From Bacilli bacterium (GTDB lineage: Bacteria > Bacillota_I > Bacilli_A > ML615J-28 > CAG-313), in assembly GCA_017937305.1 (NCBI GenBank), contig JAGBDV010000001.1, positions 66,237-130,236 on the forward strand: 64,000 nt of DNA. Direction: 5' to 3'. The notes beneath the pieces are model-generated. The model was not told the origin of the DNA, did no database searches, and saw nothing but the letters and a program-made list of their open reading frames with translations. The translations under genes were made by a program, and so were the position numbers. Numbering within the stretch: position 1 is the stretch's first letter; every line of letters begins with the position of its first letter. Below, in pieces: positions 14,638 through 60,989 of this stretch.

Positions 14638-15053
14638 TTAAACCATTAAATCTTGAACTTAAAATATTAGTATATATTATTGTTTTTGGGATATACTATT
14701 TTGCAGCAAGCGATATTTTAATATATATTGTTGATAAAAAGAAAAATAATAAAGTATTTAAACTTATTATTGAAATTATATATTTAATATCTCAACTTTA
14801 TTTATCTTATGATTTTTGTTTTAAACTAGATGATGGTTATATTCCTGTTTATTTTCTTTTATTTATTATTATAGGTTTTATCCTATATTATCTATTTATG
14901 AGAGAATATTTTATTAAATGTTTAGATTTTATATCTAAAATTATTAATAAATTAACTCCTTATATTAAGCATTTATTATATTCAAAAACAATATTTAAAA
15001 TTAGATTTAAAAAATTATTTAAAAAAAAGAAAACAAAAAATCAAAATACTTGA
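14634..15053 (+). CDS. yabQ: Spore cortex biosynthesis protein YabQ-like
   Basis: Hydrophobic ORF overlapping yabP by ATGA; conserved yabP-yabQ order. Confidence 0.65.
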   Translation: MIKPLNLELKILVYIIVFGIYYFAASDILIYIVDKKKNNKVFKLIIEIIYLISQLYLSYDFCFKLDDGYIPVYFLLFIIIGFILYYLFMREYFIKCLDFISKIINKLTPYIKHLLYSKTIFKIRFKKLFKKKKTKNQNT

Positions 15054-15078
15054 CACTATATTGATAATTTAGTATAAT
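15050..15078 (+). promoter_or_regulatory. Consensus sigmaA promoter of the tRNA pair
   Basis: TTGACA-N17-TATAAT. Confidence 0.9.
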
Positions 15079-16818: not shown

Positions 16819-16846
16819 TTGCTTTAAATAAATTATATGTTATAAT
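16819..16846 (+). promoter_or_regulatory. sigmaA promoter of the RRE/peptidase/kinase operon
   Basis: TTGCTT-N16-TATAAT with TGn extension. Confidence 0.65.
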
Positions 16847-16872: not shown

Positions 16873-17139
16873 ATGAAAATAAAAGAAGGTTTTATGTTAA
16901 GAAGTGTTGCAGATAACTATGTAGTAGTTCCTGTTGGTAAAGCATCTTTAGAGTTTAAAGGTTTAATTAATTTAAACCATGTTGGTGCTTTTATTTGGAA
17001 ATGTTTAGAAAATGATACTACTACTTTAGAAGTTATTAATAAAGTAATTAATGAATATGGAATTGATGAAGAACTTGCAACACGTGATGTAAATAATTTT
17101 ATTAATAAACTTATTGAGGCAAATCTACTAAATGACTGA
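16873..17139 (+). CDS. PqqD-family RiPP recognition element (stand-alone RRE)
   Basis: 88 aa, MKIKEGFMLRSVA...LN.VGAFIW..L...EYGIDEE.A..DV..F...L; ATG at 16873 behind GAGGTG. Confidence 0.85.
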   Translation: MKIKEGFMLRSVADNYVVVPVGKASLEFKGLINLNHVGAFIWKCLENDTTTLEVINKVINEYGIDEELATRDVNNFINKLIEANLLND

Positions 17140-17545
17140 TTATGAACAAGCAATAGAAAAGTATGGTTTTTTTATTGCAACACCTATTGGTACTTCTATG
17201 CTACCACTTCTTAGAGAACGCTTAGATACTGTTAAATTAGTAGCTCCTACTAATATTAAAAAACATGATGTTGTTCTTTATATGCGTAATGATAAAACTT
17301 TAGTATTACACCGCATAATAAGAGTACATAAAGATACTTTTACAATGTGTGGGGATAATCAATGTATCTTAGAAAAACACATCAAAAGAAGCCAAATAAT
17401 CGCCGTTATGGAAGGTTTTTATAGGGAAGAAGAATATTTCCCATGTACTGATAAAAACTATCAAAAATACGTAAGAAAAATTATCTTTAAGCGTCCATTT
17501 AAATATCTTAAACACCTAATTAAAAAAATATTAAAAAGAAAGTAA
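17132..17545 (+). CDS. Soluble S24/S26-family peptidase (Ser-His type)
   Basis: GTSMLP catalytic Ser motif, LHRII, GDN; no TM anchor; overlaps the RRE stop. Confidence 0.8.
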   Translation: MTDYEQAIEKYGFFIATPIGTSMLPLLRERLDTVKLVAPTNIKKHDVVLYMRNDKTLVLHRIIRVHKDTFTMCGDNQCILEKHIKRSQIIAVMEGFYREEEYFPCTDKNYQKYVRKIIFKRPFKYLKHLIKKILKRK

Positions 17546-17555
17546 AAATTAAATT

Positions 17556-18254
17556 ATGCCAAAATATAATATTGCAGGAATAATAGTAGAGATGAATCCA
17601 ATGTTTAATCGAACTATTTCTCAAGCAAAACCTTATTTAACCACTTCTTTAAATAATCCAGATATATCGATTGAGCTAACAATGGAAAAACTAGAAGAAA
17701 TAAAAAAACGTTATAATCACTTAAACTTAGAAGAAATAGAATATATTTTCTTAGGTCAATTATTCTATCGTCATATTCTTAAATATAACGGAATATTACT
17801 TCATTCTTCTTGTGTAGTAAAAGATAATCAAGCATATCTATTTAGTGCTCCATCAGGAACTGGAAAATCAACGCATACAAATCTTTGGTTAGAAGAATTT
17901 AAAGATGCCTATATCTTAAATGATGATAAACCTGCAATCATATTTAAAGATAATACTTTATATGCAGCAGGAACACCATTTTCTGGTAAACATGATATTT
18001 CTAAAAACTTACTTGTTCCTATTAAAGGTATTTGTTTTATTGAAAGATCTTTAAATAACTGGATTAAAGAAATTTCTAGTAAACAAGCTATTTTTGAAAT
18101 ACTTAATCAAACAGAAAGAATCCCATATGAAAACGATATGACTTTAATTTTAAGTCATATTGAAAATATCGTAAAAAATACTAAAATATATAAAATGGGG
18201 TGTAATATTTCTATTGATGCGGTATATACATCTTTTAATGAAATGAGTAAATAA
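17556..18254 (+). CDS. HPr-kinase-like P-loop kinase
   Basis: LLHSSCV, Walker A APSGTGKST, LNDD, GTPFSG. Confidence 0.75.
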   Translation: MPKYNIAGIIVEMNPMFNRTISQAKPYLTTSLNNPDISIELTMEKLEEIKKRYNHLNLEEIEYIFLGQLFYRHILKYNGILLHSSCVVKDNQAYLFSAPSGTGKSTHTNLWLEEFKDAYILNDDKPAIIFKDNTLYAAGTPFSGKHDISKNLLVPIKGICFIERSLNNWIKEISSKQAIFEILNQTERIPYENDMTLILSHIENIVKNTKIYKMGCNISIDAVYTSFNEMSK

Positions 18255-18327
18255 AGGTAAAGAATGAAAATTCTTTACTTTTTTTAAATTAAAAAACTCC
18301 TCTTAATGAGGAGTTTTATTTATTATC

Positions 18328-18867
18328 CTAATAAATTCCAAGTTCTTCTTTTATCATTGCAAAAACAGCATATACTGGTGTATATTTATGTTTTTTAGGA
18401 AGAACCATTTCTAATAAATCTTCAATTTCTTGTATAACACTTGGATTAATATCTTTTAAATTAAGAAGTGTATCTTCAATTAGTTTACCTGCTTTATCTA
18501 ACATTTCACTTCTTTCTTCAGTTAAACGTTCATCACTTAATAAATATCCTTTAACATCATCTAACATAATAGAATAGATAATAAAGGTACTATATTTATT
18601 AAATAGAATCATATCTTTACCAAAGTAATCTTTATAATAAGTATTAATGTCAATTAAGCAATTTGATAAATAACCAAAACCTATTTCAAATATTTCTTCA
18701 AGTTCTGCTTCAATTTTAACATTATCTACATATTTTTTGTAAACGTAATCTAGTACTTCAAGTACATCCATCAAGCAATACATTACACTAGAATTAGTAC
18801 TTTTTAAGTTACCTAGTAATTCTTCATTTTCTATTATATATTTATTATAATCATCATATACATTCAT
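18328..18867 (-). CDS. Hypothetical acidic helical protein (paralog of both halves of 56884-58005)
   Basis: 179-aa ORF with GGAG RBS and a downstream terminator. Confidence 0.7.
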   Translation of the reverse strand: MNVYDDYNKYIIENEELLGNLKSTNSSVMYCLMDVLEVLDYVYKKYVDNVKIEAELEEIFEIGFGYLSNCLIDINTYYKDYFGKDMILFNKYSTFIIYSIMLDDVKGYLLSDERLTEERSEMLDKAGKLIEDTLLNLKDINPSVIQEIEDLLEMVLPKKHKYTPVYAVFAMIKEELGIY

Positions 18868-58260: not shown

Positions 58261-60669
58261 TTACTTATTAGGATCTTCAGTTAATACTGGTTCCCAAACA
58301 CTTACTCCTAAGAAACTACTAGAAGTTGGTGTACTACTATAATAGTTATTTGAAGCATTAATTACACTTGTAGATTCATTCTTAATATGATAAGTAGCTT
58401 TTGAATTTAAAATTGAGTTATTATGAAGTTCTGCAGTAAATTTTGTTGCTCCGCTAGCCATTCTTAATAGCATATAAGAATTATCAACAACGTTGTTTTC
58501 CATTAAAATACTTGATCCTGTGTGTCCGGATGTTACGCCAGCAATATATAATGCTCCATGACTACCAGCTGTTTGTCCACAATTAGTGAAAATATTATTT
58601 GAAACATTAATAGAAACATTAGAACAGTTAGCAAACCATAAAAGATATTGTCCGTAATCTTTAAATGTATTTCCAGTGAATGTAATATTACCTTGAAGAC
58701 CATAGTTACCATAACTTGAAGAAATAATTTTGATTGCATCAGTATATAAAGTTTTGTCTGAACTTCCCAAGAAAACAGAATCTTTAACTGTAAAATTATT
58801 TATACCATAACCATAGAATAAAGTAGGGCGTTTTGGTGAATTTTCCACTTTAAAATTAGAAATTATTAAATTGTTAACTTCATTTCCTTTACTGCCTAAA
58901 CATTTAAATAAACCATTTGAATTTGAACTAAATAATGATTGTTTAGCAATGATAGTATATGATAATGTACAATTTGAAATTCCAGCAGAAATCAAAACAG
59001 ACTCAGTTGTGCCTAATAATTGATCTGAAAGATAAAAACCATTAAATGTTACATTGCTTGCACTTACAGTTATTTTCTTAATAATAGACTCATTTTGTCT
59101 ACTGCCAGTATTTGGATCAACATCCGCATTAGCTCCTAATAAAGTAATGCCAGAAACAGAAATATTTACATTTTCGTTAAACTCATCTCCAAATGAATAA
59201 ATTACATCATTTTCATTAGCTACAGCTAAAGCTGAATTAATACTTGTGAATGCATTGACACCAGCAGTATATTCAACACCATTTACTATAAATTTACCAT
59301 TTTTAAAATCTTGACAAACAACAATATTAGGATTATATTTTTCTAATATTGTTTTATCAGTTGAAGTTATTTCAACTACAACCGGAGCATCCATAATCCA
59401 TAAAGCATATAAATCTTTATTTCCATGAGAATTAGTTGGAATAGAAGTAATTGCTGTTCCTTCACAATCCACAGTATCAAACCAACCACCAAATTTACCA
59501 TTAACTATTGTAAGATTATCAGCAGTTGGTAATACAATTTCACTTGATTCATAATTATAAGAAGTTACAAGTGTAGAATTGCAAGCTCCAGCACCTAAAT
59601 GATAATTTATAGAATAATTTGTTGGTGTAAATTTAGCAAATAAAGAACGAGATAAACCTTGCTTAGTAATAGATTCACCACTTAAACTTTCGTTTTCAAA
59701 CCATCCTTTAAAATCATAAAATTCTTTAGTAGCAATAGGAAGTATTTCTCCACCGCCATAGTGACTCTTATTGCCAAATAAACTTAAATCTTCAAACATA
59801 CGAACTTTTACGTTACAAGTAGATGTATTAGGTACATCAAAATCAGCATATAAGTTTAATGCTTTTTCTCCCATTGTAACTATTTTCTTAATTGTTGCAT
59901 GAGCAGTCTTATCTGTACATGTTGAAGAACTTTCAAATGCACCAATAACATAATCATAGTCAGTACCAGAATACTTATCACCCGAAGTTGCTACTGCAAC
60001 AACTTTGTATAAATCTAATTCTTCAATATATTTGAAATATATTTTATACCAATATAGACCAGTAGCACCTGAAGGGTTAGAAGAAGGACTCATACCAATA
60101 TAATAACCAGTTCCACTTCCTGTGTTATATCTAGTAACAGCATATTGATAATCTGCTACTAATTCTCCACCATTTAAATTAAATGTAGTTTCACTTGCGT
60201 CATATACAGCTTTTACAAAGTCACCTTCAGTACCTTTTTCGTAAGCTTCAACTGCAACTTCTGATAAGTTTCTTGTAACTACATTTTCAGAATATGTATA
60301 AACTTCTCCTGTTTTTACATAAGCTCTTACAGTAATGTCTTGCACAGCAGCACTCTTAGGGAAGTTAATCATGGTAGCATGGTAAGTTCCATCTTCTTTT
60401 AACCCTTCAACTTCTTGTGCAACAACATTTGCAGTGTCTTTATTTAATTGTTCAGCAGTAAGTTCTCCTTGTGCAAATAAGAAACCATATACTTGGCCTT
60501 CTGCAGCATTTTCAACTTTTGCTTCCCATCTTAAACCGTTATTTCCATCAGTTCTAATTTGTACGCCATCAGTTAAAGCAACACTTGTTTCGCCTTCAGC
60601 TTTTACTAACACTACACTTAGTGATAGAACCATAAAAACAACTAATAAACTTAAAAATATTTTTTTCAT
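58261..60669 (-). CDS. Secreted protein: shared N-terminal beta domain, InlB-B/Listeria-Bacteroides-like repeats, C-terminal beta-helix (pectin-lyase-like)
   Basis: Signal peptide VKA|E; GVQIR..GLRW..YGF..NFPKS..RAYV; FNLNGG / LP...F.GWF repeats; Asn/Ser beta-helix periodicity. Confidence 0.78.
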   Translation of the reverse strand: MKKIFLSLLVVFMVLSLSVVLVKAEGETSVALTDGVQIRTDGNNGLRWEAKVENAAEGQVYGFLFAQGELTAEQLNKDTANVVAQEVEGLKEDGTYHATMINFPKSAAVQDITVRAYVKTGEVYTYSENVVTRNLSEVAVEAYEKGTEGDFVKAVYDASETTFNLNGGELVADYQYAVTRYNTGSGTGYYIGMSPSSNPSGATGLYWYKIYFKYIEELDLYKVVAVATSGDKYSGTDYDYVIGAFESSSTCTDKTAHATIKKIVTMGEKALNLYADFDVPNTSTCNVKVRMFEDLSLFGNKSHYGGGEILPIATKEFYDFKGWFENESLSGESITKQGLSRSLFAKFTPTNYSINYHLGAGACNSTLVTSYNYESSEIVLPTADNLTIVNGKFGGWFDTVDCEGTAITSIPTNSHGNKDLYALWIMDAPVVVEITSTDKTILEKYNPNIVVCQDFKNGKFIVNGVEYTAGVNAFTSINSALAVANENDVIYSFGDEFNENVNISVSGITLLGANADVDPNTGSRQNESIIKKITVSASNVTFNGFYLSDQLLGTTESVLISAGISNCTLSYTIIAKQSLFSSNSNGLFKCLGSKGNEVNNLIISNFKVENSPKRPTLFYGYGINNFTVKDSVFLGSSDKTLYTDAIKIISSSYGNYGLQGNITFTGNTFKDYGQYLLWFANCSNVSINVSNNIFTNCGQTAGSHGALYIAGVTSGHTGSSILMENNVVDNSYMLLRMASGATKFTAELHNNSILNSKATYHIKNESTSVINASNNYYSSTPTSSSFLGVSVWEPVLTEDPNK

Positions 60670-60811: not shown

Positions 60812-60989
60812 TTTCTTTCTCTCCATATCTTAAAATTATAGTAAGTATTAATAGGTAAACAATTTTGTCGCCTAATTTATTTAGGTTCTGCAAAAAAGTT
60901 TATCTTTTTTTAAGCTTTTTTAATTACTTCTTACTTCATTTTGCCAGTAATAAAAAAGTTTACCTTTTTAAGACATATACTACATATGT

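Follow-up and report, generated by a model that had tools for sequence, protein, structure and literature searches.

Linear polyphosphorylated peptides (LPPs) were defined in 2026, with Paenibacillus alginolyticus DSM5050 as the type example (Popov et al., Nat Commun 2026;17:6633; PMC13381572). Their gene clusters encode a precursor with a YxxP leader (LppA), an HprK-like kinase (LppK), a recognition element of the kind that binds the leaders of ribosomally synthesised and post-translationally modified peptides (RiPP recognition element, RRE; LppB), an archaeal-type type I signal peptidase (SpI; LppS), an exporter (LppD) and an NTP-transferase (LppN), and no cyclase (PMC13381572). In B. subtilis, LppK places up to four phosphates on Ser3 of the core, seen as a +80 Da series, and LppS, with the residues S29, H68 and D93, cuts the leader after T-1 only when LppB presents the leader (PMC13381572). 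The class was defined on cluster 1 of a sequence similarity network (SSN; Bacillales, edges at E <= 1e-23), and clusters 4 and 9 were listed only, with precursors and LPP RREs given as 'ND' and no kinase, product or function studied (PMC13381572). The description of LPPs rests on Bacillales clusters (PMC13381572). Here we analyse an operon of an RRE, a peptidase and a kinase gene, which lie as three closely packed open reading frames (ORFs) within positions 16873-18254 on the + strand of a 64,000-nucleotide stretch (the window, at its full length) of contig JAGBDV010000001.1. The source assembly is a gut metagenome-assembled genome (MAG) of a Bacilli bacterium, of 1.43 Mb, with a GC content of 27.7% and a completeness of 72%. 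We judge it likely, at a probability of about three in four, that this trio is the core of an LPP-type RiPP pathway which would recognise, cut and phosphorylate (B-S-K), and which would act in trans on three peptides with the motif YExPxIEI.

Lasso peptide clusters of the paeninodin and pseudomycoidin type also resemble the locus, through a B1-type RRE, an HprK-like kinase acting on a Ser of the precursor, an optional NTP_transf_5 protein and a [Y/W]xxP leader. However, such clusters depend on an Asn-synthetase-like cyclase and in most cases also on a B2 cysteine protease. Neither enzyme is present here, and the kinases of these lasso clusters act on a C-terminal Ser. The likeness to the SynChlorMet (Scm) cassette is confined to family-level matches, weak and far below cutoff, in which the kinase resembles ScmC and the RRE resembles ScmD (PqqD). 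That cassette contains two radical SAM/SPASM enzymes, whereas the genes flanking the trio (for MgtE, a 179-aa protein, Hsp33 and an M42 peptidase) include no radical SAM gene, and the trio has a signal-peptidase-type protease instead. The first-pass annotation of the window had proposed the operon as a candidate new peptide-maturation system. This part of it has to be given up, since the same gene set is already defined as LPP clusters by Popov et al. (PMC13381572), and the kind of system is thus not new. Judged from its sequences, the system rather appears to be a variant in a sister branch, LPP-like in its working and outside the group on which LPPs were defined.

The operon and its likeness to LPP clusters

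The tight packing of the three genes that had been noted at first is borne out, as are their positions and their domain, motif and fold assignments. The RRE and peptidase genes share 8 nt (ATGACTGA), and the kinase gene starts 10 nt past the peptidase stop. None of the three proteins has a transmembrane-like segment (maximum 19-residue hydropathy below 1.0, as compared to 3.03 for a signal-peptide control). The sigma-A promoter of the first-pass annotation can be read by eye, and a ribosome-binding site (GAGGTGA) lies between it and the ATG at 16873; a consensus promoter scan, however, did not report the site, because its -35 element matches at 3/6 positions only. The terminator claimed after the operon is present, in the form of one hairpin found by a terminator scan and a further AT-rich hairpin followed by a T-run (Table 1).

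The RRE matches the PqqD family (PF05402) at E 8.5e-16, with 58.5 bits against a cutoff of 23.4, and its gene is the sole PqqD gene of the whole assembly. As in LPP clusters, it is a discrete PqqD-type protein with the Asn/Asp pair for a YxxP leader: N35 and D72 align with N33 and D70 of LppB, the residues of Tyr/Pro recognition, and F76 aligns with F74. The lasso protein PbaB1, by comparison, carries Gly and Gln where LppB has N33 and D70. In BLASTP comparisons with sequences from Supplementary Data 1 of Popov et al. (PMC13381572), the 'RRE others' of SSN cluster 4 show 40-48% identity to the window RRE (E 1e-21 to 1e-26) and those of cluster 9 show 37%, with E 1e-15 to 1e-26 for the two clusters together.

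The peptidase has the boxes of archaeal/ER-type signal peptidases, GTSMLP (S22), DVVLY, LHRII (H60) and GDN (D75). It matches no Pfam family, its NCBIfam signal-peptidase matches are sub-threshold (TIGR02228, 2.9e-6), and searches of PDB sequences with the single sequence or a profile gave only marginal matches to signal peptidases and SEC11, such that a fold search was needed to settle its fold. The AlphaFold2 model (pLDDT 95.3) shows the clan SF fold and matches SpsB, SipA, LexA and UmuD with a Foldseek probability of 1.0. Residues H60, R61, G74, D75 and E81 are invariant across 22 homologues, and S22 is kept wherever the region is present; S22, H60 and E81 align with S29, H68 and D93 of LppS. 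The locus thus has an archaeal-type SpI with a Ser/His/acid triad next to an RRE, as is found in LPP clusters, and since the peptidase lacks a transmembrane anchor, a cytoplasmic location is predicted. Its identity to the SpI proteins of SSN clusters 4 and 9 is 34-37% (E 1e-7 to 1e-15). The SpI and 'RRE others' of these two clusters, which are of Clostridia type and come from Desulfosporosinus, Dehalobacter, Anaerocolumna, Ruminococcus and Firmicutes CAG:56, are the closest sequences to the peptidase and RRE of the window, and their RREs have the MKIKEGFML N-terminus and the hairpin insertion in common with the window RRE. In a survey of 300 Bacilli genomes, each at least 90% complete, an LppS-like gene was found in 50, or about one in six.

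For the kinase, the match to the ScmC model TIGR04249 (2.2e-7) is below cutoff, and its homologues, over 3,000 proteins in one family, carry the newer Pfam entry PF27840 'ScmC' in precomputed annotation. No variation occurs among 12 homologues in the segments LLHSS, SAPSGTGKSTHT, ILNDDKP and GTPFSGK. The 'HprK kinase' group of LPP clusters takes in TIGR04249 matches (PMC13381572), and the window kinase can be called HprK-like through its motifs and family models. A PDB search with the kinase profile returned nothing useful, and a literature search on 'ScmC/SynChlorMet' only unrelated acronyms. Among 80 kinase loci drawn from genome contigs, the companions were PqqD (44), the peptidase (22), an ABC ATPase (16) and NTP_transf_5 (6); kinase homologues also occur alone or with PqqD only. 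In G037, G039, G029 and G002, a PF14907 (NTP_transf_5) gene adjoins the kinase gene.

The likeness to LPP clusters accordingly comprises a discrete Tyr-type RRE, an anchor-less archaeal-type SpI and an HprK/ScmC-type kinase, with cyclase and B2 protease missing in both. It extends to the precursors, in which a YxxP leader has hydrophobic-x-Thr at its end and a Ser follows shortly after the start of the core, to their location 'elsewhere in the genome', which also figures in the table of Popov et al. (PMC13381572), and to an association with capsule/exopolysaccharide (EPS) loci, here via LppN in congeners. By contrast, the RRE has a beta-hairpin that is 5 residues longer and a short N-terminus, and the spacing from Pro to Thr in the leader is 1-2 residues longer. 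At 19-22 aa the cores are short, and they are acidic and conserved, whereas LPP cores are long, rich in Gly, Pro and Asn, and variable; the precursors, moreover, are multi-copy, dispersed and paired with genes for giant surface proteins.

Precursor peptides and their probable link to the trio

When the whole assembly was scanned for the precursor motif, three intact paralogous copies came to light, two in the window and a third on contig C18. Both YxxP peptides named by the first-pass annotation therefore exist, but they do not make up the full set, which counts three intact copies and one decayed. The latter is an ORF at about 14990-15070 of G000:C11, reading MKMKESF, a stop and MPTIEIINFSTAITT..., with the in-frame TAA inside the FxxP motif. 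The three intact peptides have in common the leader motif M-x-K-x-Y-E-x-P-x-I-E-I, a Ser among core residues 2-4 and DF[F/W]E at the C-terminus, and the cores (SVVIEFPW...DFFE) are conserved and not hypervariable. In the conserved [I/V]-x-T the Thr stands 13-14 residues past the Pro, as compared to 12 in LppA, and F/Y-E-T also occurs earlier, 5-7 residues past the Pro (F/Y+7, T+9 from Pro). By analogy with LppA, which is cut after T-1, the predicted cleavage site follows T22 in precursor 1 and T21 in both precursor 2 and its C18 counterpart. Precursor 1 has a syntenic orthologue in a 75%-identical relative; its gene lies 13 nt past that of a 507-aa secreted protein and 4 nt ahead of a small lipoprotein gene, and that of precursor 2 lies 10 nt upstream of the gene for an 802-aa secreted protein.

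Table 1. Coordinates of the operon, its control signals, the precursors and domain X (positions are those of the window, unless a contig is named; a slash marks the predicted cut)
Feature	Position	Strand	Details
lppB-like discrete RRE, PqqD fold, 88 aa	16873-17139	+	PF05402
lppS-like archaeal/ER-type signal-peptidase homologue, anchor-less, 137 aa	17132-17545	+	predicted catalytic S22, H60, E81
lppK-like HprK/ScmC-type P-loop kinase, 232 aa	17556-18254	+	LLHSS, SAPSGTGKST, NDD
Promoter-like site	16819-16846	+	TTGCTT, 16 nt, TGtTATAAT (extended -10); read by eye
Terminator region, kinase gene / convergent 179-aa gene	18257-18317		two hairpins
AT-rich hairpin and T-run	18257-18285		read from sequence
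Terminator-like 10-bp bidirectional hairpin	18293-18317	both	terminator scan
Precursor 1, 41 aa	21656-21781	-	MNKQYENPTIEIVEFDTENILT/ASGTFGGVETGDKELDFWE; AGGAGG ribosome-binding site
Precursor 2, 43 aa	60680-60811	-	MNKNYETPSIEIIEYETEIET/ANSSTIFDYPWKDSNDDSGFFE; alternative upstream ATG at 60826
Precursor 3, intact	G000:C18:12836-12961		another contig
Domain X, C-terminus of 507-aa secreted protein	21831-22148	-	residues 391-496, E 4.8e-6
Signal peptide and Ig-like domain X, N-terminus of 802-aa InlB-B-repeat surface protein	60118-60669	-	residues 1-184, E 6.7e-76

The precursors lie 3.4 kb, 42 kb and a whole separate contig away from the trio, and their assignment to it is based on comparison between genomes. 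Kinase and peptides occur together among the 41 relatives compared. Within the genus, presence and absence of trio and peptides agree in 10 of 11 genomes; the sole mismatch, G003, has peptides and no detected trio, but about 1.1 kb upstream of its M42 gene the syntenic contig breaks off, at the expected site of the trio, which speaks for an assembly break and not for a counter-example. In the Bacilli survey the peptide was found in 20 of the 300 genomes, 19 of which also have the peptidase (Fisher p = 1e-15), and in 10 of the surveyed genomes it lies 1.2-8 kb from the peptidase. Outside the order of our genome, the same holds for 12 of 13 peptide-positive genomes (p = 7e-10). In other lineages among the 80 kinase loci the peptide gene is found directly upstream of the kinase gene, both in Acholeplasmataceae (L087, L091, L099) and in Clostridia (L083, L094, L118, L130). 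It stands beside a peptidase paralogue in L029; in G039 such a paralogue is two genes upstream of a precursor, and some 5 kb separate the trio from a precursor in the congener G006. This last genome carries 15 precursor-like genes in total.

If the trio works like its LPP counterparts, the RRE would capture the YxxP leader as an added beta-strand, with N35 fixing the Pro kink and D72 hydrogen-bonding the Tyr. One or more phosphates would then be added by the kinase to the Ser that is conserved at position 2-4 of the core. The Ser/His peptidase, predicted to be cytoplasmic and to dock on the sheet formed by RRE and leader, would cut after the conserved [I/V]-x-Thr. The predicted product is a linear, acidic phosphopeptide of 19-22 residues, typically ...SVVIEFPW...DFFE, without a macrolactam. 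In congeners, the LppN-like NTP-transferase of capsule/EPS loci may modify the peptide further. The first-pass annotation had suggested leader binding, cleavage by an S26-type protease in place of B2, and Ser/Thr phosphorylation, all in trans; the comparative evidence, together with the LPP biochemistry, lends support to this, with Ser as the phosphorylated residue and without macrocyclisation, as a probable course of events.

Points against and rival explanations

Several observations weigh against assigning the trio to an LPP-type pathway. Identity between the RRE and LppB is only some 30% (E 2e-5 to 0.39), and that between the peptidase and LppS of cluster 1 is 30-33%. Of the three LppS proteins compared, two aligned with E 1e-3 and 5e-6, and the third failed to align at E <= 10; by BLASTP, the peptidase falls outside SSN cluster 1 and the RRE outside the LPP clade. 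The solved LppB structure 9x8z matches the window RRE at no better than E 0.027, more weakly than TbiB1, and a placement of the RRE in the LPP clade is therefore not given by sequence alone. The third catalytic residue of the peptidase is Glu, whereas it is Asp in LppS. The core clusters of LPPs include LppD and LppN, while the operon here has neither: no gene for either flanks the trio, LppD having been looked for at the locus only, and an LppN-like NTP_transf_5 protein (PF14907) is absent from the 72%-complete assembly as a whole. Of the published precursor pattern, YxxPxVLxHQxIxFETxxS with Ser3 as the phospho-site, the peptides here have YxxP, a hydrophobic-x-Thr and a Ser at core position 2-4, but the leader motif Px9Fx[T/A] as written is not matched, so that both the cut site and the position of the phospho-Ser are guesses, and binding, phosphorylation and cleavage by the trio are in any case predicted by homology with LppB, LppK and LppS. 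As for the co-occurrence statistics, the Fisher tests ignore phylogeny, also for the genomes outside the order. Whether such operons are common in genomes that lack the peptides, which the first-pass annotation had named as a test, was answered mostly in favour of its proposal: nearly all peptide-positive genomes have the peptidase, but in 31 of the 50 peptidase-positive genomes no peptide was detected with the model used. These genomes may carry divergent precursors.

It could be argued that the trio is part of a lasso pathway, with the peptides as lasso precursors and with cyclase and B2 protease hidden in the unassembled 28% of a genome that is only 72% complete. The leaders do resemble Firmicutes lasso leaders (YxxPxI...T), with a Thr near the leader end, and depending on the cut site a Glu stands at position 8 or 9 of core 1 and at 7 or 8 of core 3; lasso precursors would have an Asp or Glu at core position 7-8. 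However, neither the assembly itself nor nine relatives, which include the 97%-complete congeners G006, G007 and G010 that carry the trio and up to 15 peptides, contain a B2 protease of the Transglut_core3 type (PF13471) or a credible match to the lasso cyclase (PF00733), Asn_synthase PP-loop matches being sub-threshold in the assembly and in these three congeners. What had been noted for the window, the absence of both enzymes, is thus true of the assembly in full and of its near-complete congeners. The dedicated SpI-type peptidase, furthermore, fills the role of B2, as it does in the cyclase-less LPP clusters. The lasso reading was rejected for this lack of cyclase and B2 in the genome and its 97%-complete congeners, and we regard it as very improbable. 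In a genome of another family, which also has the K-N-B-S gene set, a 653-aa ORF on a different contig (G039:C21:6258-6668) has an Asn_synthase domain at E 5e-15 and may be either AsnB or a lasso cyclase. We give an equally small chance to the idea that the big secreted proteins have the peptidase as their SipW-type signal peptidase, be it a housekeeping or a dedicated one, a role to which its archaeal-type motif set would be suited; it has no membrane anchor and is predicted to be cytoplasmic, its gene is translationally coupled to that of the RRE and kept beside PqqD and ScmC in many lineages, and housekeeping signal peptidases score far lower with the family profile.

A different objection is that trio and peptides have nothing to do with each other, the trio maturing some other substrate and the small ORFs being accessory or regulatory to the adjoining surface-protein genes. 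The distances of the precursors from the trio would fit this, as would the coupling of the peptides to the domain-X genes discussed below, which is far tighter than that to the trio, and the 31 peptidase-positive genomes without a detected peptide. Against it stand the genome-wide co-occurrence of peptide and peptidase, the peptide genes directly adjoining kinase or peptidase genes in Acholeplasmataceae and Clostridia, the fit of a YxxP leader to a Tyr-type RRE with its Asn/Asp pair, and the fact that the genome has no other RRE, which together make this reading improbable. It is likewise unlikely that the kinase-like protein does not polyphosphorylate Ser but catalyses another group transfer or serves as a scaffold, leaving a merely leader-trimmed peptide as the product. 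The ScmC family takes its name from radical-SAM cassettes of unknown chemistry, the TIGR04249 match is below cutoff, no PDB relative was found, and some homologues stand alone or with PqqD only; on the other hand, no variation is seen in the His, P-loop and DD motifs, all of which are intact, the experimentally active LppK group takes in TIGR04249-type proteins, and a Ser is conserved at core position 2-4.

The search for a lasso cyclase or a nucleotidyltransferase elsewhere in the genome, as advised by the first-pass annotation, detected neither in the assembly itself, but found PF14907 proteins in the EPS loci of congeners. There, the LppN-like gene is unlinked to the trio and lies within EPS/capsule loci, among genes for an epimerase, a dehydratase, a flippase and glycosyltransferases (L133 in G006, L135 in G003, L136 in G007, L134 in G010). 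As to the immediate surroundings of the trio, the gene of the 179-aa protein (18328-18867, - strand), which has no family assignment and is convergent to the kinase gene, is kept beside the trio in all four closest relatives (L053-L056) and not further out.

Domain X and the giant surface proteins

The proteins encoded downstream of precursors have related N-termini, from which a hidden Markov model (HMM) was made for what we call domain X. Run over all ORFs of the genome, this HMM finds exactly three proteins, of 802, 1632 and 507 aa. In the 802- and 1632-aa proteins domain X is N-terminal and a precursor gene lies 10-15 nt upstream, whereas in the 507-aa protein it is C-terminal and the precursor gene lies 13 nt downstream; in all three cases, the precursor abuts the coding region of domain X itself. 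When 28 non-redundant peptides from 11 genomes are considered, a same-strand domain X is encoded no more than 400 bp from 23 of them, usually at a distance of 9-16 nt. The domain is common to the 507- and 802-aa proteins at the profile level only, a pairwise BLASTP being close to insignificant (E 0.019). It matches no Pfam family, and its AlphaFold2 model (pLDDT 74.6) gives only generic matches to Ig/FN3/CBM21-like sandwiches. Further along the 802-aa protein there is a Flg_new repeat.

The operon of the 507-aa gene, precursor 1 and the lipoprotein gene is preceded by a purine riboswitch aptamer (RF00167, 23409-23505 on the - strand, 53.7 bits against a gathering score of 37), for which this is an unusual regulon member. 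The lipoprotein is a predicted one of 60 aa (MKQLFVFILVLCGFFLVSC..., 21469-21651, - strand), and similar small ones flank precursors in G001 (L030/L047) and in L087. In an Acholeplasmataceae MAG (L091, 3820-9023), genes for a lipoprotein, a precursor, the kinase, the RRE, the peptidase and a domain-X giant protein are contiguous in this order. In another (L087, 9453-14094) the domain-X gene directly follows the kinase gene, and RRE and peptidase genes were not found within the locus. A subfamily of precursors in G006 (MKKEFETPTIEIINFDENINLGPNDEWYDSNVDMGGWI) precedes the gene of a 1609-aa secreted protein beside the trio (L137, G006:C3 8461-13409), the N-terminus of which is other than domain X.

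The abutting genes, the conserved cores, the placement of domain X and the riboswitch operon suggest that, once mature, the peptides work on behalf of the surface proteins encoded beside them. We tentatively extend this to the idea, which we hold to be possible rather than likely, that the LPP-type phosphopeptides of this lineage are dedicated partners of giant surface proteins, binding or attached to domain X, and not free antibiotics or signals. The processed phosphopeptide, possibly phospho-glycosylated via LppN and the capsule locus, might for example tether the surface protein to a cell-surface polymer.

On the reading of the trio as an LPP-type core, the logic of LPP biosynthesis would extend to a sister clade found widely among gut Bacilli, Acholeplasmataceae and Clostridia, and a K-B-S trio without an adjoining precursor gene can have identifiable substrates elsewhere in the genome. 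The genetic locking of these substrates to giant surface proteins via one domain offers a testable lead, by way of domain binding and surface display or anchoring, to what LPPs do. If the partnership between peptide and domain X is real, it would give the LPP family its first function.

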